A stretch of DNA of 64,000 nucleotides, from NCBI GenBank assembly GCA_029864565.1, contig JAOTTD010000001.1, forward strand, positions 208 to 64,207, written 5' to 3'. Positions 13,895 through 50,900 of the stretch are shown one piece after another. The notes beneath the pieces are model-generated. The model worked only from the letters and a program-made list of their open reading frames with translations, had not been told where the DNA came from and did not search any database. Position 1 is the first letter of the stretch. Every line of letters begins with the position of its first letter. The position numbers and the translations under genes are program-made. This stretch comes from Thermoplasmata archaeon (GTDB lineage: Archaea > Thermoplasmatota > Thermoplasmata > UBA10834).

Positions 13895-16084
13895 TTACTC
13901 CACCCGGGGTATCTTGAGGTTGAACACGCAACCCTTCGATGAGTCTCCGCGGTCGACATCGGATATCCACATCTTCCCGGAATATCTCTCGACGATGCCC
14001 CTTGCAGAGGCCAAACCTATCCCAAAGCCTCCAGTCAGCTCCGATTTCGAGGTCTTCGTGACCTGCATCACCCTGTGTTTCAGGTCATCGGGCATGCTCC
14101 TCTGAGGATGCACCACCCTGATGACCCATGAGGGCTCGTTCTCCTCATCGGGCGATGCCGACACCACTAGGTTGACAGGTTCGTGCCTGCCCGTCCTTAT
14201 GGCGGTGAGAAACAAGTTCACGAAGAGTTCGGGCAACAGATCGTCCGCCATGATCATCATCGGGCCATTCGGAAGGTCCAACGAGAGGGTCATCTTCTCT
14301 CCCGCGCTGTACTTTCGGATTGCGATGACAGCCGCTTCCATCGATGGCTTTACATCCACGCGCCTCAGCTTATCACGCCGTATCCCACGCAGCTTCGCCA
14401 ACGTTCGCACCATTGCGATTATCATGGAGATGTTCTCGACCTGTATCCTCGCCTTCTCGAGCGTGATGGGGTCATGAGACGTTCTCTCCTTGAGCGATTC
14501 GAGGTAGCCAAGAAGAGGAGTGCTGTAGTTGGCGATGTCATGCGTCAGGAGGTCTATGTGCAGCTCGACCTCGTCCCTGACCCTGATGACTTCGTTGAGC
14601 AGGCCAGCGTTCTCCAACGCCACAGCCACGTGGTTCGCGAACATGACCGCGATTTCAAGCTCCTCCCTCGAGAAGCTCGAAGGCAGGTGCCTCATGAGTT
14701 CAATGACGCCCAGAACCTCCTTCCTGCCCAGGATGGGCACCGCGAGCATGGCCGTGTGAGTGGCCGGAGTGTCCGGTATCTGCTCGCCCCTGGGGTCTGT
14801 CTCCATATCGGCGATTATCTCCGCCCGCCTGGTCCTGGCAACAGCGCCAACCACGCCAAGGCTGGCAGGGAAATCCCTATCAGCCATCGTCTCTGCAGCA
14901 TACGGGCCGGTGGAATAGACAGGGTTGCAGAGGTTCCTGGCCCAATCGAACACATAGAACACAACCTCGTCGCTGGGGATGAGGTCCACAAGCTTGTCCG
15001 CGAGTATCCTGTATATTTCGTGAGAATCGATCTCCTTCTGCATGTCCGCCGCGGCGTCTATCAGTGCCTTCTGCGCCCGGGAGCGGAAGCCAAGTTTCCT
15101 CATCGTATCGACGCTGTCGAGGGCGCTCACAACGAGCCTCGACAGCTCGTCTGCGATTCCAACCTCCTCCGGAGCGTAGTACGAGTGCCGGGCGTTATCC
15201 CCCACGAACATAAGGGCCGTGGCATCGCCGTTCTTGACCAGGGGTATCGCCATCGCATGTTCGAAGGTCATATTCTTGACCAGTTTGACCCCTTGGCCCC
15301 TGCCCATCCGCAGGTCCATGCTGGACAGCGGCTTGCGTTCAGATATAGCGGCTGCAATCAGCGGCACTGATCCATAGTTGACCCTGGCGTATCTGGATAG
15401 GCTCAGGCCCTTGGAGAAGCATGCGATGCAAAACGCCTCCCGGGTCTCGTCATTAAGCCGGAAGAGTGCCACCATATCTGCGTCGAAGTATTCCATAGCG
15501 CTCCTGCAGAACGCCGCGTACGTCTGGTCAGGATCAGGAATCGAGCCCTCGGAATCCCAAGCACATCTTGTCAGAACACGCTGGGCCTCCAAATACTGCT
15601 CCACAATGACAACTGTCTCCTCGACGCATATGTCAACCATCTCTTCGATGAGCGACTCCGCGTACATGGCCTCGTCGGCCGTGAGTGCCTCCCTGAGAGA
15701 CCCGCGCAGTATGCGGCGGAGGATGTGATGGTCGGATACCATCTTGACGAGGCCGATGCTTCGGAGATGTTCGCCCCTGATGGTGACACGGAGCATCTCG
15801 CGAGCAGCGGCATCGCCAGGGTTCTCGGCGAGTTTGAGCAGCGCCTCCAAGCAAGAACTCAGTCTGGCAGCTCGCGCCTCCTTGGGGAATGTGAAATCGG
15901 CTATTCGGGTGTAAGGGGCTGATGTGACCTCCGCGGTCCAGAGCTCCACGATGCTGTCTGCTCTGGATCTAAGTAGCCCGATGAGGCGGGCTCTCATGTC
16001 GCCATGTTCGATCTGGTCTTCATCCGACATATCTGTTCTCTGCCTCCAGAGGCTGCCCGGGTGGTCATGATACACCGTACTCAA
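13895..16084 (-). CDS. multi-domain sensor histidine kinase (helical N-domain, two GAF-like domains, HisKA, HATPase_c)
   Basis: 729 aa. H-box IDLLTHDIANYSTPL. C-terminal GGFGIGLASARGIVERYSGKMWI. The central regions have GAF-like patterns. Confidence 0.9.
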   Translation of the reverse strand: MSTVYHDHPGSLWRQRTDMSDEDQIEHGDMRARLIGLLRSRADSIVELWTAEVTSAPYTRIADFTFPKEARAARLSSCLEALLKLAENPGDAAAREMLRVTIRGEHLRSIGLVKMVSDHHILRRILRGSLREALTADEAMYAESLIEEMVDICVEETVVIVEQYLEAQRVLTRCAWDSEGSIPDPDQTYAAFCRSAMEYFDADMVALFRLNDETREAFCIACFSKGLSLSRYARVNYGSVPLIAAAISERKPLSSMDLRMGRGQGVKLVKNMTFEHAMAIPLVKNGDATALMFVGDNARHSYYAPEEVGIADELSRLVVSALDSVDTMRKLGFRSRAQKALIDAAADMQKEIDSHEIYRILADKLVDLIPSDEVVFYVFDWARNLCNPVYSTGPYAAETMADRDFPASLGVVGAVARTRRAEIIADMETDPRGEQIPDTPATHTAMLAVPILGRKEVLGVIELMRHLPSSFSREELEIAVMFANHVAVALENAGLLNEVIRVRDEVELHIDLLTHDIANYSTPLLGYLESLKERTSHDPITLEKARIQVENISMIIAMVRTLAKLRGIRRDKLRRVDVKPSMEAAVIAIRKYSAGEKMTLSLDLPNGPMMIMADDLLPELFVNLFLTAIRTGRHEPVNLVVSASPDEENEPSWVIRVVHPQRSMPDDLKHRVMQVTKTSKSELTGGFGIGLASARGIVERYSGKMWISDVDRGDSSKGCVFNLKIPRVE

Positions 16085-17348: not shown

Positions 17349-18332
17349 ATGATCTGTCTCGGCATCGAAGGCACCGCCCACACAATAGGCGTCGGGCTGG
17401 TAGACCAGGACTGCACCGTCCTCGCCAACCTTACCAAGATGATAGATGGGTCGAAGGGAGGCATACACCCTCGCGAAGCGGCGAACCACCATGCGGAGAA
17501 CGTGGTTCCTATCATACATCGCGCCATGGAGGAGGCTGGTCAATCATACGACGACATCGGCCTGGTCGCGTTCTCCCAGGGGCCGGGCCTGGGACCATGT
17601 CTGAGAACGGCGGCGACCGCCGCGAGAGCTCTGTCGCTGTCAATAGGCGTGGACTTGATTGGTGTCAATCATTGCGTCGCCCATCTCGAGATAGGCCGGA
17701 AAGTCACGGGATGCGAGGACCCTACACTCCTGTACGCTTCAGGCGGGAATACACAGGTGATAGCGTATTCCGGTGGGAGATACCGTGTTTTCGGGGAGAC
17801 GCTAGACGTCGGCATCGGCAACATGATCGACAAGTTCGGGAGGTCCGTTGGCATGCCGTTCCCCGCAGGGCCTCACCTGGAAAGACGTGCAAAGGAAGGC
17901 AGCAAGCTCCTAGACTTGCCGTACAGCGTCAAGGGGATGGATGTCGCGTTCTCGGGCATATTGACTGCCGCGCTCCAACTTCGCCGGAACGGCGAACGCC
18001 TCGAGGACATATGTCACTCAATACAGGAGACCTGCTTCGCCATGCTCGTCGAGGTTACCGAACGTGCGATGGCGCATGTGGAAAAGGACCAGGTCTTGCT
18101 CGGCGGCGGAGTCGTCCAGAACAAGCGCCTCCAAGAGATGGTCAGAATCATGGCGGAGGAGCGCGGGGCGACGATGTATGTCCCCCCTGGGCCGCTGTGC
18201 GTTGACAATGGGGCCATGATAGCCTGGACTGGAATCGTCATGCATGCAGCTGGCGTGCGAACGCCCATAGGCGAGAGCGCCGTCAGGCAACGGTTCAGAA
18301 CGGACGAAGTCGATCTCCCTTGGATGAGCTGA
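17349..18332 (+). CDS. kae1: tRNA N6-adenosine threonylcarbamoyltransferase Kae1
   Basis: MICLGIEGTAHTIGVGLV..., GVNHCVAHLEIG (metal-binding His pair), YASGGNTQV and GGGVVQNKRLQEM. It is not fused to Bud32. Confidence 0.95.
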   Translation: MICLGIEGTAHTIGVGLVDQDCTVLANLTKMIDGSKGGIHPREAANHHAENVVPIIHRAMEEAGQSYDDIGLVAFSQGPGLGPCLRTAATAARALSLSIGVDLIGVNHCVAHLEIGRKVTGCEDPTLLYASGGNTQVIAYSGGRYRVFGETLDVGIGNMIDKFGRSVGMPFPAGPHLERRAKEGSKLLDLPYSVKGMDVAFSGILTAALQLRRNGERLEDICHSIQETCFAMLVEVTERAMAHVEKDQVLLGGGVVQNKRLQEMVRIMAEERGATMYVPPGPLCVDNGAMIAWTGIVMHAAGVRTPIGESAVRQRFRTDEVDLPWMS

Positions 18333-18447
18333 CATCGTTCAAGATATACGACGAAACCGAACAATTCATGGAAAATGATATTAACGCTCTACATCACTCT
18401 TCCGTCGAGGAGGGATTGGCGTAGAGGCTTCTGATGAGACTAAGTTC

Positions 18448-19188
18448 GTGAAGCTGAAGAATTTCAACCTTGCCATGGGCCTTCTGCACCTATTCCAGGG
18501 CGCGCTGATGCTCTGGCTCGCCCCGCCTGGCAAGGGTCAGATATGGACCACATTCCTGGACTATGAGAACGGGCAGATAGTATCCGTCCAGGATGTGATC
18601 GCCTCGGTGCCCCTGGGACCGCTCGTGGCATCGTTCCTGTTCGTATCTGCGATAGCGCACTTGTCACTGGCCACGTACGCCTACGAGTGGTACGTGGCGA
18701 ACCTGAGGAAGGGAATCAACTACGCCAGGTGGGTCGAGTACGCCATAAGCTCATCCATCATGATAGTGCTCATCGCCATATTGGTCGGCATATTCGAGCT
18801 CGCCAGTCTGATGCTGATATTCGCCCTGAACGCGACTATGAACCTGTTCGGCTTGATGATGGAGCTGCACAACCAGACGACGGAGAAGACCGACTGGTCC
18901 GCTTACATCATGGGCTGCTTCGCGGGGCTCGTGCCATGGATAGTCCTCGGCATATACTTCTTCGGCGCGATATTGCACAGCCCAGATTCCGTGCCTCTGT
19001 TCGTTTACGCGATATACTTCATGCTAGCGGCGTTCTTCAATGTATTCGCCATCAACATGGCGCTACAGTACCGCGGCAAGGGCAAATGGGCTGATTACTT
19101 GTACGGCGAGAAGGTGTACATCATCCTCAGCCTGACGGCGAAGTCGACGCTCGCGTGGCTGGTGTTCGGCGGTACCTACAGGTTCTAA
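18448..19188 (+). CDS. heliorhodopsin
   Basis: 246 aa with seven hydrophobic helices. Blocks match my recollection of HeR 48C12: RWVEYAISSSIMIVLIA (counterion Glu97, codon 18736-18738), GLVPWIVLGIYF, YRGKGKWADYLYGEKVYIILSLTAKSTLAW (Schiff-base Lys232, codon 19141-19143), plus His14 and His71 equivalents. GTG start. Confidence 0.9.
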   Translation: MKLKNFNLAMGLLHLFQGALMLWLAPPGKGQIWTTFLDYENGQIVSVQDVIASVPLGPLVASFLFVSAIAHLSLATYAYEWYVANLRKGINYARWVEYAISSSIMIVLIAILVGIFELASLMLIFALNATMNLFGLMMELHNQTTEKTDWSAYIMGCFAGLVPWIVLGIYFFGAILHSPDSVPLFVYAIYFMLAAFFNVFAINMALQYRGKGKWADYLYGEKVYIILSLTAKSTLAWLVFGGTYRF

Positions 19189-19227
19189 ACAGCGCTCGAA
19201 GATCCACAAGAAACCCTTCGCGCCAGT

Positions 19228-19476
19228 TCATCTGCCTCTGTAGTCGTGACCACAGTACTGACACGCGTTGGCGTCCCACGATATCGACCTGCCGCAGGAG
19301 ACGCATCGCCTGTGTGAGGCGGCGGTCTGAACCTGTTTGCCCGTGGGCTTTTCGGCAGGTCTGACTAGCTTTCCACAGTAGCCACAGAAGCGCATGTCGT
19401 CAGGAACATCCTTTCCGCAAGTGCTGCACTTCAATACGATCTCCCCGCATACACCATTGGCTACCGCTCTATTCAA
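19228..19476 (-). CDS. double zinc-ribbon protein
   Basis: Two CxxC...CxxC units (CSTCGK...FCGYCGK and CVSCGR...CQYCGH). Last gene of the flpA-nudix-rps15-recJ string. Confidence 0.7.
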   Translation of the reverse strand: MNRAVANGVCGEIVLKCSTCGKDVPDDMRFCGYCGKLVRPAEKPTGKQVQTAASHRRCVSCGRSISWDANACQYCGHDYRGR

Positions 19477-19481
19477 CTTTC

Positions 19482-20825
19482 TCAGTCAAGCTGACGGCCC
19501 ACGATCGAATCGCAAGATGCGATGAAGTCTTCCTTCTTGTTCGCGGGTATCGTCGCGCCCGACGCAACCGCGTGTCCTCCGCCGCCGCCGCCGACGCCTT
19601 CAGCCGCCTTCTTTAGGGCGGCGGCGAGGTCGAGCCCCTTTGACACCAAGTACTTCGTCCCGCGGCTGGAGACCTTGATCTTGCTGCCGACGGTCGACAG
19701 CGCCAGAGTTGGCTTGGCCTGGTCGAGGATGTACTGCATCGCGAGCCCGCACTCGGCGCCGGCCATAGACGCTACCGGAGCTTCGAAGTGCTGTATGTGG
19801 TCGCGCTGCTCGACGCCTTCGGTCTCGATGAACATGAGCCGGTCCCTCAGCCTGGCGTTGTACTCGCTCCTGAGAGAGTCTGCCTCGTCCCTGGCACCCT
19901 TGTCGCCCAAGCACAATGCCAACCCAAGCGACTCGTGGCCGAGCCTGCCGCATGCGTTGAGCAGGTCTGCGAGGTCTGCTGCGCTCAGCTCCATCGTGGG
20001 GATCCACATTACATCGGTCACCAGCTCCTCGACGGTCTCCGGACGGCATCCCTGGCCCATGAGGCGGAGAGAGAGCATCGACGTCAGTTTGCGCCTGTAG
20101 AAATCGTCCAACGAGCCAAGGGCGGTATCGGGGTTAATCTTCATTGAGTCCAAGAAGGCAGTCACGTTCTCCCCTCTGCCAGATAGTCCGACGAAGTACG
20201 GGTCCACCGAATCCGCGATGGCCTTGAAAATTGTCGTGCCTTTCAGATTGAGGCTCTTCTGGATTGACAGATACTCCTTTTCAGCCGCCTGGTCGAGCAC
20301 CTGCTGGTTCAGGCCCTTCATCCCACCCATGTGCTGTCGGTCCCCCACCGCGCCAGCGAGGGCGATCGGGGATAGGGCCCAGTTACGCGGGTCGAGGGTG
20401 ATGGCAAGAAGAAGGCTGAGGGTGGATGAGCACGCCTCGGTCATGCCGTTGATGCCGTGAAAATGCGGGTTGACCTGGAGCACCTTTCTTGACTTGCGCA
20501 CCGGCTTGTGGTGGTCCAGTGCTATGGTGACGCCCTCGAGTGTCTCCAGCTTGTCTATCTGGCCAGAGCCCATGTCGAGGAATACGACCATGTCGTTGCC
20601 CTCCTTGGTCAGCCTGTCCATGAGGTCGTCATCGAAGCCCTTCGCCATCGTGAGATGGAACTGCCGGTCCTCGCGAGCCAACGCCCCAGCGAGAACCGCC
20701 CCTGCGGCGATGCCGTCGGCGTCGTAGTGCGTCACGACCCTGAGCTGCCCGTTCGAGCGCAAGGCTTTCGCCACGTGGCCGAGCGCTTCTGAGAATTCTG
20801 CCGGGAGAGTCACGCTCCCGCTCAT
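19482..20825 (-). CDS. RecJ-like DHH/DHHA1 phosphoesterase (archaeal GAN/Cdc45-RecJ type)
   Basis: VVTHYDADGIAAGAVLAGAL (DHH motif I/II region), FLDMGSG, LDHH and C-terminal GGGGGHAVASGA (DHHA1). It lies next to rps15, a linkage I recall as conserved in archaea. Confidence 0.85.
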   Translation of the reverse strand: MSGSVTLPAEFSEALGHVAKALRSNGQLRVVTHYDADGIAAGAVLAGALAREDRQFHLTMAKGFDDDLMDRLTKEGNDMVVFLDMGSGQIDKLETLEGVTIALDHHKPVRKSRKVLQVNPHFHGINGMTEACSSTLSLLLAITLDPRNWALSPIALAGAVGDRQHMGGMKGLNQQVLDQAAEKEYLSIQKSLNLKGTTIFKAIADSVDPYFVGLSGRGENVTAFLDSMKINPDTALGSLDDFYRRKLTSMLSLRLMGQGCRPETVEELVTDVMWIPTMELSAADLADLLNACGRLGHESLGLALCLGDKGARDEADSLRSEYNARLRDRLMFIETEGVEQRDHIQHFEAPVASMAGAECGLAMQYILDQAKPTLALSTVGSKIKVSSRGTKYLVSKGLDLAAALKKAAEGVGGGGGGHAVASGATIPANKKEDFIASCDSIVGRQLD

Positions 20826-32372: not shown

Positions 32373-34739
32373 TCAGTAGATGCTCCCATCGGACTGATCG
32401 GAGTACAACACACCATCGATCGCTGAGAGTGTGTACCCGGTGCCTCCCTCGCCCGTCCACGTTGCCAGGTTGAAGGTCGCACCGGCCGATATCCGGTACA
32501 CCGAGACCCCTGTGTATGTGAGTGGTGTGTTGGGATCGCAGACATCGGGTGGTCCAGGCGTGCGCAACATATACACGGAGCCAGTCGTGTACCCGGGCAG
32601 GCTGAATACCGTCACATCGCCGTTCTCGTCGACGCCAAGAGCGGTCTTCTCATCGATGCCTATGCCCATCGCCACATCGGACCATCCGTCCTCGACTATG
32701 CGTGCAAGGAAGGTCACGAGCCTGCCCATGCGGTCCCTGGCGACGAAATGGCTGTCGGTTATCTTGTCCTCCATGTGCTCCATGCTGAGGAAGTCGCGCT
32801 CTATGGCCACACTGCGGTTGTATGGGTTGATGAGGGCCGCCTCTGAGTCGATTGTGTCGTACTTGGCTGAGAACGCGAACTCCCCCAGTATGGCGAGGCC
32901 TGCACTAGTGCCCCCTACAGGAGCAGGCTTGTTCGCGACGAAGTGTATGGCGTCCTCGACGGGCGTCCCATTCCACATGCTGACGTAGTCCCACTGATCG
33001 CCACCAGCGATGAAGAGCGCCTCAGCGTTGCGAATTGTGTTCAGGATGAACGAGTCGTAGCAGGCCTCCTGCGACAGGAACACTATCGACTCGACCGAGT
33101 CGACGCCACCGAGCCTGTTGAAGACCCACGGGTTGTAGCCGTCTGAGCCGGAGCAGCGTATGACGACGAAGTCCCCGCCGCCAGATTTGGAAATCATCCA
33201 TCTCATTGCGTCGGCGATGTCATTGCTGCCACCTGCTAGCAACATGCCCTGCGATGTCTGAGTGACCACATCCTCAGGGTTGCCTGTCAGATAGTATTCA
33301 TAGGTCACCGTCTCGGTTGCCACGCCCCAGTAAGTCTCGAGGAACGCCCACCAGCCACTGTTCGGGAACTCGAAGCTCATGTAGGGCACGTGGGTATTTG
33401 CAGTGTAGCTGCTCGTGGTGTACATAGCGTATGCCGGCGGGAACCTGATCCCCATGCCCTCATAGCCGAACCGCTCGCTGTTCTTCGTGGTGCCCATGCC
33501 AATCATGCATGCCTCGTATGCGGAAAGCACTTCGGCACACGCAACCGCAGCAGGATCGTTCTTCTCAAGACTGTCCATGATGTACCCTACGAAAGTGGGC
33601 ATGTCTATCCGGCCAACTGCTGGCGAGCCTGGGGTGATAGCAGCTCGACGAGCTGTGGAGATCACCGAGCTGTACGAGTCGATGTCCTCAGCGAGCGTGT
33701 CCGCCAGGACCAGGACCGCCTGGCCCAGCGCCTCTACCTCGGACATCTTGAACACCGACTGCGTCGTCAGTATCTCCCATTGGAACGGAGCAACGCTGAA
33801 CAGCTCCGTGAACTCATCGACTATGATGAGGCTCAACTCCTCCTCGCTCATCTCAGGACACGCGTTCAGGCTGAGCAGTATCTCATCGTACGAGAAGCCG
33901 CGGTAGCCGATGCTGCTCTCGCTCGCGACCATGTAGTCCGTGTCAAGACCCTTGACACGGTACTCGTACACCGTTTCCATCTGGCCTATGGAACACTCGT
34001 CCATGGCCATGATGTCCACATGGTGGCCATCGAGAGCGGCGATGGCCTCGTGGTGCGAGAGCCAGTCGCCGCCCCATTCATCGTCCCCTGGCGAGCCGTC
34101 CTCCATCGTCTGGTCCCACGCTATTCCATCCACGTCCGAACCGTGATTCCAGAAGAACAAGAGCATGTGCTCAGAAGGATAGTTGGTAGAGCTGTAGTCT
34201 ACGAACTGTTCCAGCGTCTTCTGGTCGCCCATGTTGACCTCTCCGAGGCTCTCGAGCTTCACCAGCTCATGGTCTTCGACGGACAACAGATAGGCGGGCT
34301 CGTAGAGTGTGTCCAGCAGTATGAGCACATTGACATCAGAACTGGAGCCGCCTCTCTTCAGCTCCTCGAGGTCCGTCTCATTGAGGGCGTCCAAGTCGTT
34401 GTCCGCGGTCAGATACACGAGCACGGTCCATTGAGCGATCTCGGACAACACGACCGCGTCTACCGTATCCCTATAATTCTCCGCGGATGCGAACCCTGCG
34501 AAGAGCGAGGCCGCTATCGCCACGGACACAAACACACGGAGTATTCTCCCCGAATCATCAGTCCGAAGTATCCTCTCACCCCCCTTGGTGATTGGGGGGG
34601 CAACAGCATCGTTGGGTTTAGACTTGCCGATACTGACTCCGTGGAACATTAGGCAGCTTCGGAAGGAACCATGTTCAACTTCAATTCCCTGCGATAGAGA
34701 AGACCCACTCAACCAGGCTTGCATGTCGCATCGTGCCAA
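32373..34739 (-). CDS. secreted two-peptidase fusion: clostripain-like C11 cysteine peptidase + S51 (cyanophycinase/dipeptidase-E-like) serine peptidase
   Basis: Signal-like RILRVFVSVAIAASLFAGFASA. C11 blocks WTVLVYLTADNDL, FFWNHGSDVDG (His199) and AMDECSIGQMETVYE (Cys249). The C-terminal 300 aa carry the S51 blocks GGGDFVVI, FIAGGDQ and VGGTSAGLAILG (Ser612). The true start is uncertain (Met31 at 34649, or further downstream). Confidence 0.85.
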   Translation of the reverse strand: MARCDMQAWLSGSSLSQGIEVEHGSFRSCLMFHGVSIGKSKPNDAVAPPITKGGERILRTDDSGRILRVFVSVAIAASLFAGFASAENYRDTVDAVVLSEIAQWTVLVYLTADNDLDALNETDLEELKRGGSSSDVNVLILLDTLYEPAYLLSVEDHELVKLESLGEVNMGDQKTLEQFVDYSSTNYPSEHMLLFFWNHGSDVDGIAWDQTMEDGSPGDDEWGGDWLSHHEAIAALDGHHVDIMAMDECSIGQMETVYEYRVKGLDTDYMVASESSIGYRGFSYDEILLSLNACPEMSEEELSLIIVDEFTELFSVAPFQWEILTTQSVFKMSEVEALGQAVLVLADTLAEDIDSYSSVISTARRAAITPGSPAVGRIDMPTFVGYIMDSLEKNDPAAVACAEVLSAYEACMIGMGTTKNSERFGYEGMGIRFPPAYAMYTTSSYTANTHVPYMSFEFPNSGWWAFLETYWGVATETVTYEYYLTGNPEDVVTQTSQGMLLAGGSNDIADAMRWMISKSGGGDFVVIRCSGSDGYNPWVFNRLGGVDSVESIVFLSQEACYDSFILNTIRNAEALFIAGGDQWDYVSMWNGTPVEDAIHFVANKPAPVGGTSAGLAILGEFAFSAKYDTIDSEAALINPYNRSVAIERDFLSMEHMEDKITDSHFVARDRMGRLVTFLARIVEDGWSDVAMGIGIDEKTALGVDENGDVTVFSLPGYTTGSVYMLRTPGPPDVCDPNTPLTYTGVSVYRISAGATFNLATWTGEGGTGYTLSAIDGVLYSDQSDGSIY

Positions 34740-34763: not shown

Positions 34764-34807
34764 TTGATATAGCGCAACGGAGATTGGCTGTGCAGTGGCT
34801 TGGGAGG
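34764..34807 (+). promoter_or_regulatory. putative TATA-like box and Shine-Dalgarno for the 34814 C11 gene
   Basis: TTGATATA lies at 34764-34771, about 43 nt upstream of the ATG. GGAGG lies at 34803-34807, 6 nt before the ATG at 34814. Pattern only. Confidence 0.3.
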
Positions 34808-34813
34808 ATTGGT

Positions 34814-36010
34814 ATGATTAAGCTTATCCGCGAAAATTCTGTGGGCAAGTCAGTGATTATTCTGGCAGCAGTGATCCTCGCTGTCCCTGGATTCACAGGG
34901 CTATCGATTGCTGTTGATCAGGAGGACAACGGCATTCCGGAGTGGACTATCGCCCTCTTCATAAATGCCGACAACAACCTGGAAATCTGCTACGACGACT
35001 TCACCTATCCGTGGCTGTGTGCCCTCCCAGATAACGACGAGGTAGACATCGTCTCGTGGGTGGACAGGCTGAGCACGACGGGGTATGAAATCATCGAGTT
35101 CTCAGGCGAGGACACGACGATCAGCTACGTGGAGACGGAGCTGGGATTCGGCCTTTCCTCCACACTGAGGGATTTCCTCATATGGACCAACACCGAACAC
35201 CCGTCGGAGAACTTGGCAGTGATAATGTGGGACCACGGCAGCGCGTGGCGATCCTTCAGCAGCGACGATACGGATGGATCGAGGATGTATGGCCCTGACC
35301 TGGACCAGGCGCTGCGGGAAGCCGACATACCACTGGACATATTGGGCTTCGATGCCTGCTCGATGTCAAGCATGGAGAGGCTGTACGAGGTCGGTTACTC
35401 CGGGTATGTCGACATAATGGTGGCCTCGGAGGAGCTTGTGCCCGGCAACGGTTTCCCGTATGATTTGATGTTCACACCATTGATACAGGACTCCACCAGG
35501 GCACCCGTGCAGGTCGCGGGAGACATGGTGATGGGTTGGGAATCGTACTACCACCAATCTCAGAGGGTAAACCTCGCAGCGATAGACGTGAACCAGTTCA
35601 TGGCCGCAATGAATTCCTTCAGCGACTGGACAGACGACATGATAGACGGAATCGACCTGTTTAAGAATGCATACAATCACGCGGCCAAGGATGCATATGC
35701 CGACTGCGGGACTCAGTTCCAGCTAGATATGATCGACCTGGCCGAATTGCTCTATGAGGAATTGGCCAGATGTCCTGCAAGCGATGAGCGGACGGCCCTG
35801 TCGGACTCGACCCTTGGACTGACCGACGCTTTGAAGGGTTCGGTCATAGCCATATCCACATCGGCTGTTACGAGGGACACCCACGGCATGACGATATACT
35901 GGGGATGGTATGGCTCCTGGAACTCGTTCGAGACGCGGTATCTTGAGACGCTCTGGTTCCCCGACGATACAGGTTGGGGAGAGTTCCTTGAGCTGTTCAA
36001 CCTGAAGTAG
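34814..36010 (+). CDS. secreted clostripain-like C11 cysteine peptidase
   Basis: Signal-like KSVIILAAVILAVPGFTGLSIA. WTIALFINADNNLE, VIMWDHGSAWRSF (His) and GFDACSMSSMERLYE (Cys). It ends GWGEFLELFNLK. The ORF track starts at 34784. I prefer the ATG at 34814, which has an SD. Confidence 0.85.
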   Translation: MIKLIRENSVGKSVIILAAVILAVPGFTGLSIAVDQEDNGIPEWTIALFINADNNLEICYDDFTYPWLCALPDNDEVDIVSWVDRLSTTGYEIIEFSGEDTTISYVETELGFGLSSTLRDFLIWTNTEHPSENLAVIMWDHGSAWRSFSSDDTDGSRMYGPDLDQALREADIPLDILGFDACSMSSMERLYEVGYSGYVDIMVASEELVPGNGFPYDLMFTPLIQDSTRAPVQVAGDMVMGWESYYHQSQRVNLAAIDVNQFMAAMNSFSDWTDDMIDGIDLFKNAYNHAAKDAYADCGTQFQLDMIDLAELLYEELARCPASDERTALSDSTLGLTDALKGSVIAISTSAVTRDTHGMTIYWGWYGSWNSFETRYLETLWFPDDTGWGEFLELFNLK

Positions 36011-40976: not shown

Positions 40977-41861
40977 TCATGCGAGCAACCAACCAGCTGT
41001 CATTGCAGTCATCACAGCACCCATAGTGATCGCTCCAAGAATGGGCTTTGGAGTGCGCATGAAAACAAATCCAGAGTAAATCCCAAGCGGCAATGTCGCC
41101 GCCGTGGCAACGCTGACCTCTAATGGAAACAAGTCTCCCGTGAACGCGAAGACGTAGACATAGGTCGAGGCAATCACGACCATGTGCAACAACCTTGTTC
41201 GATCGCCCAGTCTAACGACTAAAGTGAGCTTACCAGATTGCCTGTCCGCCATCATGTCGGCCCAATGAATGCCCAAGAGGTTTGCCATCACGATTAAGAA
41301 AACTGGCACACACCATAAGACAGCTCTCGCAGGTATTTCACTAGTCTGAGAGGCGAGCGCGAGGAGGGGCATAAGGAACCCGCCGAGAATGGCATTGTCA
41401 AGCTCCCCCCAGCCCCGCCTTATGAGCCGCATCGGAGACATAGAATATATCCAGCCTCCGGCTAGTCCCGACACAACGACCAATCCCGTGACGGGATAAA
41501 GAATTCCTGAAGTGATGCCTACGGCCGTTAGGATCATGGCGGACCCAAATGAGACCACAGCTGCATTCAACGCCAGCGATCTAGGAACCTGCTTCGATAT
41601 GAGAACACCACTGCCTCCTGTAACTATGGTTCTTGCTGTAAGTGAGTCTGTGTCCACATCTGCATACTCGTCGGCATAGTGTGCCATCATTATCGCCGAG
41701 ATCAAAATGACAAAGCCGAGAAAGGCAGCGGCCAAATCGACCGCTCCCATTTCGTACTGTGCCATGGCCAAACCAAGGGCGTATGAAATGATGCCGGCAA
41801 CAATAATCAGAGGCCTCGCCATCTTCACTAACGCAATCGACGTTGAATAGAGCATAGCCAT
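40977..41861 (-). CDS. UbiA-family prenyltransferase
   Basis: Eight or nine hydrophobic helices. Asp-rich motif HYADEYADVDTD and a second D-rich region HWADMMADRQ. Confidence 0.8.
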   Translation of the reverse strand: MAMLYSTSIALVKMARPLIIVAGIISYALGLAMAQYEMGAVDLAAAFLGFVILISAIMMAHYADEYADVDTDSLTARTIVTGGSGVLISKQVPRSLALNAAVVSFGSAMILTAVGITSGILYPVTGLVVVSGLAGGWIYSMSPMRLIRRGWGELDNAILGGFLMPLLALASQTSEIPARAVLWCVPVFLIVMANLLGIHWADMMADRQSGKLTLVVRLGDRTRLLHMVVIASTYVYVFAFTGDLFPLEVSVATAATLPLGIYSGFVFMRTPKPILGAITMGAVMTAMTAGWLLA

Positions 41862-41864
41862 AGC

Positions 41865-42629
41865 TCATCTCCTAGAATAGTAGTAGTCGAATATCTGGTC
41901 AAGATCCCCGCCGAGTGCGTACCAAACGCGGCACTTCAGGAATTTAACAGTATGACGGATATTGCCGTGCTTCCGAAAAGCATCGGCGCTTGTGATTACA
42001 GTCTCTCGAAGAAGTCTCACCTTCCCGTGCTTCCTCATGCATTTGCCAAGTCTGACGTCTTCCATGATCGGCACATCAATAGCCTGAAGGCATCCCCTCA
42101 GGATTCCTGTTCGCAAGAATATCCCCCTGTCGCCCCAGACATCTCCCAGGACCCACGAAAAGAGGCTGCCCAATGGCAAAAGAAACTGAAGATAAGCGCT
42201 TCTTTTGTCGAACGACCTGGAGAATGCGCCACCGGCGGTCTTCGGATCCGACATGGCCTTGATTATGGCAGAATCCCAATCATTCGGCAGCGTGGTATCA
42301 GAGTGCAGGAGTAGAGATATGTCTCCTTTAGCGATCTTTGCGCCCTCTATGAACGCATATCCGCGTCCGATCCGATTGGAAACTACGACTATCTCGCTCG
42401 GTCCTTCGGGAGAGATCTTACCCACCAGTTCCGGGCTATTGATGACGATGATCAGCTCGGCGATGACATTAGAAGCATGGACAGACTCTCTGATCTGCAG
42501 AAGCCTGGAAATGCCCTCATGAACGGGCACTATGACCGATATGATTGTTCTGCCTTCATTCGGCGAACCTTTCTCAACCATATTCGCAATCATTTCCTCG
42601 ATCATCTCAACAAAGCCTTGTTCTCGCAA
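41865..42629 (-). CDS. GT2-like glycosyltransferase (rSAM/selenodomain-associated transferase 2 type, recalled as TIGR04283)
   Basis: ISVIVPVHEG...LIIVINSP...GRGYAFIEGAKIAKGDISLLLHSDTTLP, a GT-A fold with a DxD-like HSD. Confidence 0.75.
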   Translation of the reverse strand: MREQGFVEMIEEMIANMVEKGSPNEGRTIISVIVPVHEGISRLLQIRESVHASNVIAELIIVINSPELVGKISPEGPSEIVVVSNRIGRGYAFIEGAKIAKGDISLLLHSDTTLPNDWDSAIIKAMSDPKTAGGAFSRSFDKRSAYLQFLLPLGSLFSWVLGDVWGDRGIFLRTGILRGCLQAIDVPIMEDVRLGKCMRKHGKVRLLRETVITSADAFRKHGNIRHTVKFLKCRVWYALGGDLDQIFDYYYSRR

Positions 42630-43315
42630 ATGAAGCGCATTGTTCTTTGTGCGAATGAAGACTGCTCGCAGAGATCCTGGAATAGCGCGCTAAGATCATC
42701 CATTGTGTCGACATCGCTCCATTCTTGAAGTATGTGAATTTTCAGGCCTGCCCCTTCCAACTTTGATAAAGTGTCCTCGAACACCTGCGAAGTACTCCAA
42801 TGGATCCCCTCAAAAGCATCTGGAAGAAATGCGCGGCGACTGAATCCTATGAGGTAGTATCCTCCATCGGTCGAAGGGCCAATCACTGCATCGTGACCAT
42901 CGAGCGCGGAAGAGGACTCGACCAGAATCCTGACGGGCAGATCCGGCGAGTCGCTTCCAATCGCCACGACCTTTTCGAACTCCTTATTGAATGCATCGCT
43001 GAAGGCGTTCCTAAGCCTTTGTCCCATGTCTCGTCCGCGCTGAGGGATATAGGTCACGTTTGTTCCAAGCCAACTCTGAAATCCTCCCAGCTTGGTGCTC
43101 GGATAGTAGCAGATGGAAAACGGAATTCCTGATGCCTTGAGAGTCTCAATCGAATCCAGTACGAAGCAACCGTAGAGATCTATGACCTTGTCCTCTGGCA
43201 GGTTCCGTGCAAGTCTTTGCTTGACAACCCCTTTCTGCGGGTATTTCGTGAGGAGAAGAATGCATGCGTTTGATGCAGTCCCGCAATGCTCAGGATTCTT
43301 ATTTCTATCGGACAA
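42602..43315 (-). CDS. DUF2064 / CofC-like nucleotidyltransferase-fold protein (rSAM/selenodomain-associated transferase 1 type, recalled as TIGR04282)
   Basis: ACILLLTKYPQKGVVKQRLA...VAIGSDSPDLP...GPSTDGGYYLIG...WSDVDTMDDL. Confidence 0.75.
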   Translation of the reverse strand: MSDRNKNPEHCGTASNACILLLTKYPQKGVVKQRLARNLPEDKVIDLYGCFVLDSIETLKASGIPFSICYYPSTKLGGFQSWLGTNVTYIPQRGRDMGQRLRNAFSDAFNKEFEKVVAIGSDSPDLPVRILVESSSALDGHDAVIGPSTDGGYYLIGFSRRAFLPDAFEGIHWSTSQVFEDTLSKLEGAGLKIHILQEWSDVDTMDDLSALFQDLCEQSSFAQRTMRFICENKALLR

Positions 43316-44261
43316 GTGCTCCCCCGCAAGACGACCCTTGGCCCGCGGTGCAACCGAAGCAGTGGCTCTCCGTTACGATTCTCCTGCGGGAATATTGCTT
43401 TGGGTCGCAATCACGAATGTGCTGAGGTACAGAGTCATCGACCGTCAATCCAAGACCGAGGTTGAAGTCGCAGTCGTAGACTTTTCCGTCCCAACCAACA
43501 TTAATCTGGCTTCTGCACATCAGTCCATCGATGGTTTCTTTGTTGAAGGCCTTCCGTAGCAGCCAATCATACCTCTGGAAATGGCCCTTTTGGCGCAACA
43601 TCTCGTTGAAGCGGCCGACTGGCATATTAGCAATCGTGATAAGGCTATTGAAGTCAATGCCGTATTCCCTGAAGAGTATCTCCCGGTACTCCTGCTCCAA
43701 GGCAGACTGCTCTGCTGGCAGGAAATCACCCTCTGGGTTGAATACCAAATCCAGCTGAAGTTCGAGAACCCTTCCGTAGCCAGCTTTGTTGAGTCTCTTC
43801 AGAGCTTCGATGCTGCGATTGAAGACGCCATCTCCGCGCACAGCGTCGACCTCCTTTCTTAGATAGCAGGGAAGAGACGCTACGAGCTTCACTCGATTCT
43901 GCTTGAAGAAATCAATCATCGACTTCATTCTTGGCTCAATAAGAATTGTCAGATTTGTCCTGATCTGGACTCTGAAGCCTTCTGCGGACATCGCCTTGAC
44001 GAACCTCTTCAGATTAGGATTCATCTCGGGGGCTCCTCCGGTAATGTCCACAAGCTTCGGTCTGATGTCACGCGCAGCAGTTATCACGAGCTGCATGGTG
44101 TTCCAATCCATCAGCTCCCTCCTCTCGGGACCCGCCTCGAGATGACAGTGTTTGCAGCGATTGTTGCAGAGGAATCCAACATTCACCTGAAGCGTATCCA
44201 CTCGCTCCGAAAACAGCTCAGTTCCAACAGCATTCTTTATCCTCTTCTCAAAGTCATTCAT
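43305..44261 (-). CDS. radical SAM / Cys-rich C-terminal domain protein (ArsS-like, recalled as TIGR04167)
   Basis: CNNRCKHC radical-SAM cluster motif, ITGGAPEMNP, and a C-terminal DUF3641-like HCFGCTAGQGSSCGGAL. Confidence 0.85.
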   Translation of the reverse strand: MNDFEKRIKNAVGTELFSERVDTLQVNVGFLCNNRCKHCHLEAGPERRELMDWNTMQLVITAARDIRPKLVDITGGAPEMNPNLKRFVKAMSAEGFRVQIRTNLTILIEPRMKSMIDFFKQNRVKLVASLPCYLRKEVDAVRGDGVFNRSIEALKRLNKAGYGRVLELQLDLVFNPEGDFLPAEQSALEQEYREILFREYGIDFNSLITIANMPVGRFNEMLRQKGHFQRYDWLLRKAFNKETIDGLMCRSQINVGWDGKVYDCDFNLGLGLTVDDSVPQHIRDCDPKQYSRRRIVTESHCFGCTAGQGSSCGGALVR

Positions 44262-45108: not shown

Positions 45109-45353
45109 ATCCTACATCAGATACTATACTCCTCCCACCTTATTGACTTTTCTCACGTGGAATTGCCGGGGTTAGATCCTTTTCTCTTTTCTTGTCAATA
45201 TCAGATAGGTTAGCAAGGTCTCAATTCCCTCCGATAGAACCGAACCATCCGACCGGGGTTAGAGATCGCACCAAGAGAAAGAGCCATGGGAGGCGAAAGA
45301 AACCCTTAAGCCATGCCAGGCAATTCCGGCCATGGGCACGGGGGAACTCGGGT

Positions 45354-46670
45354 ATGTCAATCAGTGACTCTTCGAAGCGTCTAATGTGTTTGATGGTTTC
45401 TGCGGCGTTCGCCGTCCCGCTCTTCGCGAGCCTGGCGGCAGGAGAGGGTGAAGACGGTGCTGCAGACTGGACACTGGCGATATACCTCGACTCCGATAAC
45501 GATCTCGACTTCTGGGCGCAGGAAGACGTGAACCAGATGCTAAGCATCGGCTCCACAGAATCTGTCAACATTATCCTTCTGTGGGATACGGAGATAGGCC
45601 CTGCGCATGTCTATCACGTGCTCAAAGGAGAGCTTCGAGAGCAGGAAGACTGCGGGCTGCACGGGGTCGAGACGAATATGGGTGACTCGGAGACACTCAG
45701 AGAGTTTGTCACGTACGCCACCTCGAATTTCGAATCGGAGTACTTCCTGCTCGTTCTCTGGAACCACGGGGACGACTCCCTGGGAGTATGCTTCGACTAC
45801 GACACCGGAGCCGACGATAGCATAGACTACCTCACCCACCAAGAGGTGGTGTCAGCCCTAACCGACTACGAAGTAGACGTGCTCCTGTTTGCTGCCTGTA
45901 TTCTCGCAATGGTTGAGGTTGCCTACGAATACTACGCATCTGGAGCGGACATTGACTATGTCGTAGCCAGTGAGGGGTACGACCCGATGCCTGGCTTCCC
46001 GTGGGACACCATTCTGACGAAACTCGTTGCCCAGCCTGGCATGGCTCCACTTACGCTCGCCACGACCTTGGTTGACGAACACGTCGACTACTACAACGTT
46101 AAACACCGGGGAGAGGAGGGACCACACCAAGACGGGCAACTGGAGGATGACCCAGGAACTGCCTGGTGGTACATGTCATACGAGCACGTGACCTTCTCCG
46201 TGATAGAACTCTCCGGAATGGGAGAAGTCGTATGCGACATCAAGGACATGGCGTCTGCGCTAATCCTCGAGATGGATGAGTATGCAAGTATTGTGTCATA
46301 CGCGAGAGCGCAGGCAATCCTGCCCTGGTCCCAGAACGGCTGGGAAAGAACTGTCGACCTCCCGACGCTTGTGGAGGCTATTCGCGATCGAAGCCTCGGT
46401 GCTGTCATGTCTGCGTGCGAGAATGTGATGATGAGTCTGTCGGATGCGGTTGTCTACTATCGCAGTATAGACGAACGGTCGGGATACGAAGGTATGGGCG
46501 TACTCTTCCCCAGATCGCTCGCGATGTATGAGAATTGCCAGGTGAACGTAGGCCATTGGCCCATGCCACAATGGTCCGAGTATTACGGGCAGATGCTCTT
46601 CGTGGATGAGATTTGGCTTGACTTCCTTGACGCATATTGGAGCGCCGCGCCTTCTGGTCCATCTTCATGA
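45354..46670 (+). CDS. secreted clostripain-like C11 cysteine peptidase
   Basis: Signal-like RLMCLMVSAAFAVPLFASLAAG. WTLAIYLDSDNDLD, LVLWNHGDDSLG (His) and LLFAACILAMVEVAYE (Cys). It ends IWLDFLDAYWSAAPSGPSS. The ORF track starts at 45192 (TTG). I prefer the ATG at 45354. Confidence 0.85.
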   Translation: MSISDSSKRLMCLMVSAAFAVPLFASLAAGEGEDGAADWTLAIYLDSDNDLDFWAQEDVNQMLSIGSTESVNIILLWDTEIGPAHVYHVLKGELREQEDCGLHGVETNMGDSETLREFVTYATSNFESEYFLLVLWNHGDDSLGVCFDYDTGADDSIDYLTHQEVVSALTDYEVDVLLFAACILAMVEVAYEYYASGADIDYVVASEGYDPMPGFPWDTILTKLVAQPGMAPLTLATTLVDEHVDYYNVKHRGEEGPHQDGQLEDDPGTAWWYMSYEHVTFSVIELSGMGEVVCDIKDMASALILEMDEYASIVSYARAQAILPWSQNGWERTVDLPTLVEAIRDRSLGAVMSACENVMMSLSDAVVYYRSIDERSGYEGMGVLFPRSLAMYENCQVNVGHWPMPQWSEYYGQMLFVDEIWLDFLDAYWSAAPSGPSS

Positions 46671-46736: not shown

Positions 46737-47624
46737 TTAGGCCGAAGGCGATTCAAGGATGGGGGAATGGCGACGGTCAAGAGGGAACCATCTCTGAGTG
46801 TGATTCTCGCTCAGTTCCCACAATCTTCTGGCCAGTTCAGGGTCGTTGGACTCTTTAGAGGTCTTTGTCACCCTCCTCTTTCTGAAGCATTCTCCCGAGA
46901 TGTTCATCACGTTCTGCGAGCTAGCCAAGTAGACAGAGGTGTCTGCACCTTTCTCGGGACTGGCTCCGAACACCCTGAAGAAAGTCCTGCCAAACGCTCC
47001 TGCGTTTCTCGACAGGCCCGTGGCGACAAGCCCCGGCATCAGACAATTGGCGGTGACGCCTGTGCCTGTCAGTCTCCTTGAAAGCTCCTTGATGAAGAGT
47101 ATGTTCGCCAGCTTTGATTGCCTGTAGGCCTTCATCGCGTTGAACTTAGTTTTGAATTCAACGTCGTCAAAATTGATGGTCCCTCCATGAAGCCCCGAGG
47201 AAACACTGATGATCCTTGCTGGGCTGCTCCTCTCCATCAAGTCAAGGAGAAGGTTCGTCATAAGGAATGGCGCAAGATGGTTTACCGCGAATGTATTCTC
47301 TATTCCGTCCTTCGAAACCTTCCTTTCTCTCTCCCACGTCCCTGCGTTGTTGATCAGAATGTGCAACCTGTCGTATCTCTCCCGGAAGTTGGCGCAACAA
47401 TCATGCACAGAAGACAGAGATGATAGGTCGCATTCGAGGGAATCAATCATTTCGTTCTTGGAAACAGCTGTTATTTGGCCTCTTGTGGCCTTTCCCTTCT
47501 CGGCGCTCCTCGCCGTGAACACAACAGTTGCTCCCATCTTCCCTAACGCTAACGCTGTTTCCCTTCCGATGCCAGATGTGGCCCCAGTTATCAGGCATAT
47601 CTTGCCGCTCATCATACCTGTCAT
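46737..47624 (-). CDS. short-chain dehydrogenase/reductase (retinol-dehydrogenase-like SDR)
   Basis: ITGATSGIGRETA, NNAG and the catalytic YRQSK. Confidence 0.9.
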   Translation of the reverse strand: MTGMMSGKICLITGATSGIGRETALALGKMGATVVFTARSAEKGKATRGQITAVSKNEMIDSLECDLSSLSSVHDCCANFRERYDRLHILINNAGTWERERKVSKDGIENTFAVNHLAPFLMTNLLLDLMERSSPARIISVSSGLHGGTINFDDVEFKTKFNAMKAYRQSKLANILFIKELSRRLTGTGVTANCLMPGLVATGLSRNAGAFGRTFFRVFGASPEKGADTSVYLASSQNVMNISGECFRKRRVTKTSKESNDPELARRLWELSENHTQRWFPLDRRHSPILESPSA

Positions 47625-47966: not shown

Positions 47967-50900
47967 TCAGGTCGGCGGCGCCTTCCTCCTGCGGACTGCG
48001 ATGGCTACTGCTATAAGGGTGATCGCGGCCAAGGCCGCGAGTGCAATCAATAGCCACGGCATCTCCGAACCTGGGAGACCCTCGTCCGGCTGACCAGCTA
48101 TGCCGAAGAGGGACAACCCTGACACGTTGGCCCACAGATACCCCTCGTAGGACATGCCGAAGAGTTCCACATCCGTCGTGTTCACACCGGTGGTATCGAC
48201 GATGTCAGAAAGTCTTACCCATTCGCCGTCTGCCGACAGGAGGAAGAGCTGCAGCGAGCTCTCATTCAGATCCTCAGGGTCGCCCGCGTCGCCGTCGCCA
48301 TTGACGTCGAGGTCGGAGGCCGTGTAGTATATCTTAATCAGCGAGCCCGAAACGACGGCCGACAGGTCCGGATCGAGTGACTGGAACTCTATCCGAACAT
48401 ACTTATCCATCATGAGTTCGCCAGGCGCCAGGGCGTCAGACCCGGAGAGACTATCCGAGACCTCGTCGTCATGGAGCTTGTCCACTCTCACGCTGAACGT
48501 GGCCATGTTGTCGAGCTTCGTCCACACGAACGTGTCGGTGGCCCTCATGGTATCCATCTGGTCGAGCATGAAGCAGGCCCTCGGGTTCAGGTAGTCCACC
48601 ATCACGCTCCTCTCCGATACGGTCATGCGCATGCTCTTCAGGACGCCCAGTACCCGGATCCAGTCGGTGTCGTAGACGTGCGAGAGCATCACTACCGTCT
48701 GCGTCTCGTTCCACAGCCCGTACCTGACCGCCATCCGACCGTATTCCGAGTCGAGCATCTGAACAAGGACTTCACCAGAGTCCTCTAGTATTGAGTATAT
48801 GATTCCGCCCGCGGTGCCTTCGCCCGCTTCGGGGTGGCCAACGAGGACGATGTACCTCGCATCGGCATGTTCCGCCAGCAACGTATCGGGACCTACGGTT
48901 CTGACATCTGCGTTCTGCGTAAGATGCAGCGCGAACTCGGCCGAGCCTTCGATGTCGTCGTAGCAGAGTACGATCTCGTCCTCAAGCTCGAGCAGGTAGT
49001 CGAGGTCGAGTGAGTCGGGCACGCCATCGCCGTCGGAGTCGGTGCTCCTCGGATTGAGACCCAACTCCAGCTCTCTAGAGTCGTTAACCCCGTCGCCGTC
49101 CGTGTCCTCCGACAGGGGGCTCATCATTGACGATATCTCGAACCCGTCCGAGAGCTTGTCTCCGTCAGAGTCTCCGGAGGTCGCGTTGGTGTTGAACAGA
49201 ACCTCTTGGCCGTCATCGATGCCGTCAGCGTCGGTGTCTGCAGAGTTGGGATTTGCCCCGAGCTCGTACTCCTGACCGTCGAACATGGAATCCCCGTCGG
49301 TGTCTGGATTCTTGGGATCAGAGCCGAAGCCGATCTCCTTGAAGTCATCCAGGCCGTCCTGGTCGGTGTCAGGTGTGTTCGGGTCAAGGTCCAGGATGAA
49401 CTCCTCGTAATCTGTCAGCCCTTCGCCGTCGGTGTCCTGAACCTTCGGGTCACTTTCGAACTCGACCTCGGCCCCGTCCCCGAGCCCATCGCCGTCCGTG
49501 TCCCAGTGTGTCAAGTTGGTCCCGAGCTGCCACTCCTCCATGTCCTGAAGCCCGTCCTCGTCCGGGTCAATCGAACGCGGATCGGACTGCATAGCAGCCT
49601 CGTCGGGGTCGGGAACGCCGTCGGCATCTGTGTCGGGCGTCATCGGCTCGCTGCTGACCGTGAGCGAGGAAGTAGACTCCTCTGTCGTGACAGTAATAGA
49701 CCATCCGCTTTCCTCTTGGACATCGGTCAGGCCGTCGCTGTCAGCGTCGAGGAACACATAGTCGGGCTCTGCCTGAATCAGCTCCATGTCGTGAGAGCAT
49801 CTGGTCACGTTCCCCCAGCTCGCTAGGTAGATGCGATTCCCGCCGTCCACTGTAATGCCGTTGGCTGCGATGTAGTCCTCTTCAAGGCTGCACATCCATC
49901 TGCCGTCCGATGTCCATTTCTGTATCCGGCCCGCGAAATCCCCGCTACCATCAAGCGTCAGTATGTCGCCATTGACGTCGACCCTGATGCTCCTGACTCG
50001 GTCGAGAAAACCGTCCTGGGTGCCTGTCTCGCCCCACATCGTCACGAACGTGCCGTCGGGTTCGAACTTCTGAATCCTGTCGTTGTTCGTGTCTGAGATG
50101 TAGACATACCCATCCTCATCGACATCGATGTCTGCCGCGTACCATCCCAGGTCGAACTGCCCAGGTCCGGTGCCGGATTCTCCCCAAAGAGCCTCCTGCG
50201 ATATCATTTCAGTTCCATTCATCAAGAACTTGCGAACACGATCGTAGGAGTCCAGAACGTACAGATAGTACGTGTTGGGGTCCGGACCGTTGGGGTCCAG
50301 AGTCATCCCGAATATTGAGACGTCGATGCCCACGAGAACGCTGCCAGGTATCTGACTCAAGAGCGTTCCGTTTGTTGCATAGACAAGGACATCCGCGCCC
50401 GTGCATACGACCAGGAGTGTCTGGCGCTCGCCGGACAAGTTCAGGTAGATGCATTCCAACTCATCCGGCCTGTAGTCGGGGACCGGAAATCCTCCGACCT
50501 CAGTCCCGTTCTGATCGAAGACCACGACGTTGGTGGAGTTGTCTGTGTACACAAATCCGTCCTCGTCTACTGCGACGCAATTCGGGGAGTATCCCACAGC
50601 CTCGGGCACGAAGGAGGAGCTGAAATCGATATGCGTAAGATAGTAGTCCGTGATCTCGTCCTGAATGCCGTCCCCATCAGTGTCGGCACTCCTCGGGTTC
50701 AGTAGACAGTAGTACTCCTCGAAGTCGCCGATTCCGTCTCCGTCGGTGTCGCTCAGATGGGGGTCGGAATTGACCAGCCAGTAGTAGGTGTCGTTCCTGT
50801 ACGTGAAATTCACCGCCCATCCGTGATACTCGAAGAAGTCCGTGAGGCCGTCCCCGTCCGAATCAGGGCTGGAGAAGTTGTATCCTCTGGCGTGTTCGAA

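Follow-up and report, generated by a model that had tools for sequence, protein, structure and literature searches.

A heliorhodopsin gene of an uncultured Thermoplasmata archaeon in a variable slot of a conserved housekeeping block

In the 64,000-nt stretch of Thermoplasmata DNA analyzed here (hereafter the window), a gene for a seven-helix membrane protein sits among housekeeping genes, and a first-pass annotation had read it as a heliorhodopsin (HeR) without retinal-synthesis genes nearby. The locus therefore raises the question of whether the gene encodes a genuine HeR that still works and, if it does, from where its retinal would come and with which partner it would act. Our answer is that this is very probably a functional HeR, which is vertically inherited but dispensable to the uncultured Thermoplasmata archaeon carrying it. 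While the identification held, the significance attached to it was overstated since the flagged features have already been published for the HeR family, namely missing retinal-synthesis genes, inconsistent neighbors, nearby histidine kinases, nearby short-chain dehydrogenases (SDR), and a connection to zinc. Within a large and already annotated archaeal HeR group, the protein is a routine member, correctly identified but of low novelty. As it stands, it matters little, adding one more uncharacterized Thermoplasmata HeR to more than 7,000 homologs.

Family identity, fold, and conserved residues

The ORF at 18448–19188 (+ strand) is real, and as called it starts with GTG and encodes a 246-aa product. 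In a search with Pfam models, it matched the HeR family PF18761 with 310 bits (threshold 26.7) and an E-value of 1.3e-92, over model positions 1–241 of 242, and no other Pfam family matched the protein at E ≤ 1. It also scored 323.6 bits against NF038020, the NCBIfam equivalog model for HeR, for which the cut-off is 100, so the NCBI pipeline would name this protein a HeR automatically. At E ≤ 1e-10, the window HeR has more than 7,470 database matches, and the nearest of them (92% identity) already carries the NCBI name "heliorhodopsin HeR [Thermoplasmata archaeon]". Among solved structures, the best match is TaHeR from Thermoplasmatales archaeon SG8-52-1 (PDB 6IS6, 7U55, and 7CLJ), with an E-value of 9e-70 (6IS6/7U55) and 56% identity over the whole length. 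The HeR 48C12, from a freshwater actinobacterial fosmid (PDB 6SU3 and 6UH3), follows with an E-value of ~3e-52 and 45% identity.

The fold leads to the same assignment. An AlphaFold2 model built on 43 homologs (pLDDT 83.9, pTM 0.81) has the seven helices proposed from the sequence, at residues 3–24, 56–75, 92–112, 118–144, 150–177, 184–210, and 217–243. It also displays an A–B β-hairpin with strands at 29–40 and 43–55 and a short helix at 79–87 in the B–C loop. When this model was compared to known structures using Foldseek, TM scores were 0.85 to TaHeR (6IS6) and 0.81 to 48C12 (6SU3). Type-1 rhodopsins matched with E ≥ 1.3e-3, TM ≤ 0.67, and 8–17% identity. Hence, neither a type-1 rhodopsin nor a non-opsin family is a better match than HeR, whether by sequence or by fold. 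The predicted cytoplasmic loops contain six Lys and Arg residues vs. two in the extracellular loops, which leans toward a cytoplasmic N terminus, although these numbers are small. Taken together, profile, alignment, and fold all match HeR and support the identification.

The residues expected of a HeR are in place. The motifs RWVEY (94–98), YRGKGKW (208–214), and SLTAKSTLAW (228–237) are exactly as first described, and so are the positions of His14, His71, Glu97 (codon 18736–18738, +), and the helix-G residue Lys232 (codon 19141–19143, +). Glu97, the predicted Schiff-base counterion, aligns with E108 in TaHeR and E107 in 48C12, while Lys232, the predicted retinal Schiff-base lysine, aligns with K238 and K241, respectively, and is invariant in 43 relatives. 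Kovalev 2020 (PMC7049168) lists 17 polar or charged residues that are conserved family-wide, and upon mapping of the 48C12 numbering, all 17 were found to be present. Glu97 is the single Glu counterion, Ser228 being aligned with 48C12 Ser237, the serine that replaces the second carboxylate of type-1 rhodopsins, and both counterion-stabilizing serines (Ser67 and Ser101) are present. The cytoplasmic polar cavity, formed in 48C12 by His23, His80, Asn16, Asn101, Arg104, Tyr92, Tyr108, Glu230, Glu149, Gln216, Tyr226, and Trp105 (PMC7049168), has all its equivalents in His14, His71, Asn7, Asn91, Arg94, Tyr82, Tyr98, Glu221, Glu139, Gln207, Tyr217, and Trp95. Also kept are Pro163 in helix E and Trp237 on the surface.

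TaHeR is the closest known system. Like the window HeR, it is of archaeal origin, and the two proteins share the Lys, the Glu, and the two His positions, together with the MELHNQTT and GEKVYIILSL blocks. They differ in that the window HeR, as called, has an N terminus 9–11 residues shorter, an E–F loop 5 residues longer, and an A–B hairpin 2 residues shorter, and it has Leu161 for Phe172 at the lateral fenestration. A further difference concerns the Schiff-base cavity, where Ala93 (codon 18724–18726, in the motif NYARW) replaces a lining aromatic residue that is Tyr104 in TaHeR and Phe103 in 48C12. All 43 aligned relatives from this HeR clade have Ala at this position, and we counted the substitution against our best explanation. 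The 48C12 protein shares the family-wide polar residues but comes from a bacterial rather than an archaeal host. Compared to it, the window HeR has Asn132 for Ile142, Glu117 for the dimer residue Asp127, and Met204 for Gln213, the last of which is a variant that Kovalev 2020 (PMC7049168) calls common. It also has Ala194 for Phe203, which suggests a wider fenestration.

Expression signals, selection, and retinal supply

The gene had been described as monocistronic-looking, which is backed by its upstream region. Kae1 ends with a stop codon at 18332, leaving a spacer of 115 nt before HeR. Within this spacer lies an archaeal BRE/TATA-like element, GGAAAATGATATTAAC (18370–18385, +; TATA-like box at 18377–18383), in a block that recurs in about six relatives. 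The block, GGAAAA..TATTAA/TTTTAT, aligns in L006, L007, and L008 and more loosely in L017 and L009, and a similar block is also found in L093 and L107 (these and similar labels are our handles for related loci). This conservation suggests that HeR has its own, putative promoter. On the 3′ side, HeR is convergent with a double-zinc-ribbon gene on the − strand, and 39 nt separate their stop codons. Judging from this arrangement, HeR appears to lie outside any operon with its neighbors.

The start codon is less clear-cut. The called GTG at 18448 is the first canonical start past an in-frame stop at 18382, which is 66 nt upstream of it. In an alignment of 17 syntenic loci, a GGAGGG box is followed, after 6 nt, by the start codon. 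The corresponding Shine–Dalgarno-like GGAGGG in the window is at 18409–18414 (+), followed by ATT at 18415–18417, and the ancestral start column reads GTA (18421–18423). This column contains ATG, GTG, TTG, or CTG in 12 of the 17 loci, while in the subclade of the window, it contains ATA (L006 and L017), ATT (L008), GCG (L007), or GTA (the window itself). The in-frame codons upstream of GTG 18448 (..SDETKF) match the N termini of relatives with synonymous differences and, since they are conserved as amino acids, they appear to be translated. The NCBI annotation of the 92%-identical protein begins at ATT. The true N terminus may thus lie ~9–11 residues upstream of GTG 18448, possibly at ATT 18415, which would give a 257-aa product. 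The start column implies that initiation either is near-cognate, at ATT 18415, or has shifted to GTG 18448. This question touches the cytoplasmic tail only. Nevertheless, since a canonical start has been lost at the ancestral position, the expression level of HeR and its exact N terminus are uncertain, which counts against a functional reading.

The window is 99.7–99.99% identical to an ENA metagenome contig of 131.9 kb (ERZ27296442:k141_865516), and its relatives are uncultured Thermoplasmata metagenome-assembled genomes, including two complete chromosomes, with CP070748.1 and CP070732.1 as the closest complete genomes. When compared to five relatives, HeR showed a dN/dS of 0.06–0.22, vs. 0.10–0.22 for the flanking RecJ gene. 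HeR is thus under purifying selection, like its housekeeping neighbors.

No blh/brp or crt genes had been seen in the window, and we came to the same result by Pfam annotation of all called genes in the window plus the 10 kb past its 3′ end. Blh/BCD, RPE65-type enzymes, phytoene synthase, phytoene desaturase, and lycopene cyclase were all absent from these ~74 kb of a genome of ~1.7–2 Mb. Two genes that had been put forward as isoprenoid or retinoid flavored do exist as described, a UbiA gene (40977–41861, −) and an adh_short SDR gene (46737–47624, −), but we rejected both as retinoid genes. The best NCBIfam match of UbiA is MenA-like, with 43 bits vs. a cut-off of 277, and the protein falls below every cut-off. 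The SDR, 28 kb from HeR, is a generic one. In what appears to be an operon (40977–44261, −), UbiA comes last, after genes for a radical SAM/DUF3641 protein, a DUF2064 protein, and a family 2 glycosyltransferase, which is a non-carotenoid context.

The lack of nearby retinal genes is the published norm for the family. Among 381 genomes with HeR as their only rhodopsin, a full de novo retinal pathway was reported in 1, β-carotene monooxygenase in 55%, and retinol dehydrogenase in 63% (bioRxiv 10.1101/2021.02.01.429150). TaHeR belongs to a host without retinal synthesis, and a lateral fenestration has been proposed to serve for uptake of exogenous retinal (PMC9385722, citing Shihoya 2019). At the fenestration position, Ala194 of the window HeR corresponds to Ala200 of TaHeR. 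Retinal would most likely be scavenged through this opening, which lies between helices E and F and is lined by small residues, as in TaHeR. Alternatively, it might be supplied by a carotenoid-cleaving or retinol-oxidizing enzyme whose gene lies in another part of the genome.

The RecJ–Kae1 slot and the zinc-ribbon neighbor

HeR lies in a defined genomic slot (18333–19481), between the convergent 3′ ends of Kae1 (17349–18332, +) and a RecJ-family nuclease gene (19482–20825, −), which it shares with the double-zinc-ribbon (DZR) gene. The order alanine dehydrogenase, Kae1, HeR, DZR, RecJ-family nuclease, S15, NUDIX, and fibrillarin is kept in nine species-level genomes. With DZR present or not, these 9 genomes share the synteny Kae1–HeR–(DZR)–RecJ–S15 with several metagenome contigs.

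A metagenome scan anchored on the RecJ protein yielded 52 related loci, which showed that the slot is variable in content. It is empty (13–79 nt) in 12 loci, contains a DUF5678 gene in 15, a 4–5 kb cassette alone in 9, and a GAF histidine kinase in 1. HeR is therefore absent from the slot in 37 loci. In the others, the slot contains DZR and HeR (12 loci), DZR, a 4.6-kb cassette, and HeR (1 locus), or HeR alone (2 loci, L093 and L107). The cassette carries genes for a small transmembrane (TM) protein, a ~555-aa secreted protein, a ~465-aa radical-SAM-like protein, and a methyltransferase. Since HeR is missing from the slot in many close relatives, it is not essential. In a neighbor-joining tree of RecJ and Kae1, the loci with DZR and HeR fall into two subclades of a single larger clade, in which one empty locus and one kinase locus are found beside them. 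When mapped on this tree, the slot contents indicate that HeR is dispensable, mostly vertically inherited, and repeatedly lost. This is of modest evolutionary value, since the housekeeping block is otherwise conserved and HeR appears in one defined slot of it as a gene that can be dispensed with or swapped.

Two loci appear to depart from vertical inheritance. The slot HeR of L032 and L034 is 64% identical to the window HeR and belongs with another HeR clade (the L018–L030 type), while RecJ and Kae1 place these loci beside L009, whose HeR is 80% identical to the window HeR. On these sequence groupings, the pattern suggests that the HeR gene has been replaced in situ in L032 and L034.

The convergent neighbor is a genuine DZR gene (19228–19476, −), which encodes 68 aa as called from 19434 and 82 aa in its longest ORF, with a match to PF12773 (DZR) at E = 1.9e-15. 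In eight relatives (L006, L009, L032, L034, L091, L095, L016, and L087), we found a long form of 170–196 aa, with an N-terminal double zinc ribbon followed by ~3 TM helices. In four loci (the window, L007, L008, and L017), there is a ribbon alone of 64–82 aa, the membrane domain being deleted. The window DZR is a truncated version of what is predicted to be a lineage-restricted, membrane-anchored double-zinc-ribbon protein. The long form has 25 detectable homologs, all from this lineage, and is found beside RecJ either with HeR or with the cassette.

Zinc ribbons have been associated with HeR in the same archaeal group, in the Znf-HeRs described by Bulzu et al. 2021. Here, in contrast, the zinc ribbon is encoded by a separate convergent gene with no fusion. 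We found no N-terminal zinc-ribbon fusion in the window HeR, since at most 21 codons fit between the stop at 18382 and the called start, none of them for Cys. CxxC motifs were absent from the N-terminal extensions of HeR in all 80 related loci. When we scanned all loci for zinc ribbons at the HeR N terminus and for small ORFs rich in CxxC in its vicinity, no fusion came to light. Another difference is that most Znf-HeRs are flanked by carotenoid or photolyase genes, while the window HeR has neither. We also looked for linkage between HeR and DZR outside the syntenic clade, but tblastn with the membrane-anchored form of DZR returned only distant DZR-TM-like genes 8–10 kb away (L020, L023, and L033), and this candidate link was dropped.

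Other candidate partners fared no better. Histidine kinases near HeRs have been reported (Bulzu 2021), and the window has a GAF histidine kinase gene 2.4 kb upstream (13895–16030, −). This candidate was rejected since the kinase is equally found in loci without HeR (L092, L094, L102, L103, L128, and L132). Clustering of three genes per side in 81 loci gave vertical-synteny blocks only, with no partner shared across HeR clades. Similarly, none of the ten recurrent classes of HeR neighbors listed in PMC11109279 adjoins the window HeR. AbHeR with glutamine synthetase, TfHeR with photolyase, and OcHeR with an ABC transporter belong to the same family and presumably make light-dependent protein contacts on the cytoplasmic side. 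However, in those cases, HeR and partner share an operon, while the window HeR is monocistronic-looking.

Proposed mechanism, alternatives, and other features of the window

By analogy with TaHeR and 48C12, we propose the following mechanism. The N terminus would be cytoplasmic, and all-trans retinal would be bound to Lys232 as a protonated Schiff base, with Glu97 as the counterion. Light would isomerize the retinal, and the Schiff-base proton would move to the cytoplasmic polar cavity (His14, His71, Asn7, Asn91, Arg94, and Glu221) with no net transport. A seconds-long O-like state would then alter the cytoplasmic face of HeR and modulate a partner protein encoded outside any HeR operon.

Could the protein instead handle energy or ions? 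It would then be a proton transporter like the viral V2HeR3, which transports protons (PMC9448325), or a two-chromophore harvester with exogenous xanthophylls at the fenestration. A 2025 preprint argues for a carotenoid-binding fenestration in 91% of HeRs, and the fenestration in the window HeR is lined by small residues, as in TaHeR. However, this antenna idea is based on docking, and archaeal HeRs were outside its tests. The closest characterized relatives, TaHeR and 48C12, exhibit no transport and have long photocycles, and the pattern of conserved residues in the window HeR is of their type, with a hydrophobic extracellular half. We therefore consider a role in energy or ion handling to be improbable. 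It is even harder to believe that this is a remnant gene, decaying or without a chromophore, heading for the deletion seen in sister lineages. Such decay would fit with the GTA in the start column (GCG, ATA, or ATT in the nearest relatives), with the 37 related loci in which the slot has no HeR, and with the lack of retinal genes within ~74 kb. Yet the reading frame is intact, all the catalytic and structural residues are kept, and dN/dS (0.06–0.22) is like that of the housekeeping neighbors. Moreover, the codons upstream of GTG 18448, conserved with synonymous changes, appear to be translated, and GTG 18448 is itself usable as a start.

A further alternative is that HeR and DZR form a two-gene photosensor/transducer module, in effect a split Znf-HeR, in which the ribbon would dock on the cytoplasmic face and relay the signal. 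Bulzu 2021 reported N-terminal zinc-ribbon fusions in six Thermoplasmatales HeRs and cited zinc binding by TaHeR and 48C12. Among the slots that are fully visible, DZR is present in 13 with HeR vs. 0 of 37 without it, and in the relatives, the protein is anchored in the membrane by its ~3 TM helices and belongs to a family confined to this lineage, with 25 homologs. This association is weakened by its distribution since the loci with both genes fall within one larger clade and may represent one ancestral state followed by whole-slot deletions. Because co-occurrence follows host phylogeny, the link is inseparable from shared ancestry. In addition, HeR occurs without DZR at L093 and L107, and no DZR homolog adjoins HeR in ~65 other HeR loci that we examined. 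DZR is on the RecJ strand, 5–47 nt downstream of RecJ, and being convergent to HeR, it is not co-transcribed with it. Its membrane domain is deleted in the window, L007, L008, and L017, and genome bin41 has a full-length DZR paralog ~11 kb from HeR, beside an integrase. On balance, a two-gene module seems unlikely. Much the same doubt attaches to a narrower version, quite unlikely in our view, where the window DZR would be what is left of a membrane-anchored protein, specific to this lineage, that serves the HeR clade as physical partner or transducer, and the pair would have been gained and lost together in a recombination-prone RecJ–Kae1 slot. If true, this would provide a concrete and testable signaling partner for an archaeal HeR, and there would be a reason for the zinc binding that has been reported. 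A link between HeR and DZR would, if it exists, bear on what archaeal HeRs signal to. We retain the reading of a probably functional HeR, with no specific partner apparent from this locus.

Elsewhere in the window, we made several minor observations. The window and the ENA contig diverge at ~1736, inside a tRNA-Val(GAC) gene (1682–1755). Beyond this point, the ENA contig has a phage-type integrase gene, and the window has a gene for a BPL_N-domain protein (470–1576, −), which looks like a strain-specific element integrated at tRNA-Val(GAC). There are four paralogous genes for clostripain-family proteases (Peptidase_C11), at 32373–34739 (−), 34784–36010 (+), 45192–46670 (+), and 61492–62652 (+), with one more just past the window. 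Finally, the gene at 47967–54068 (−) encodes a 2,033-aa protein with faint matches to thrombospondin type-3 repeats.
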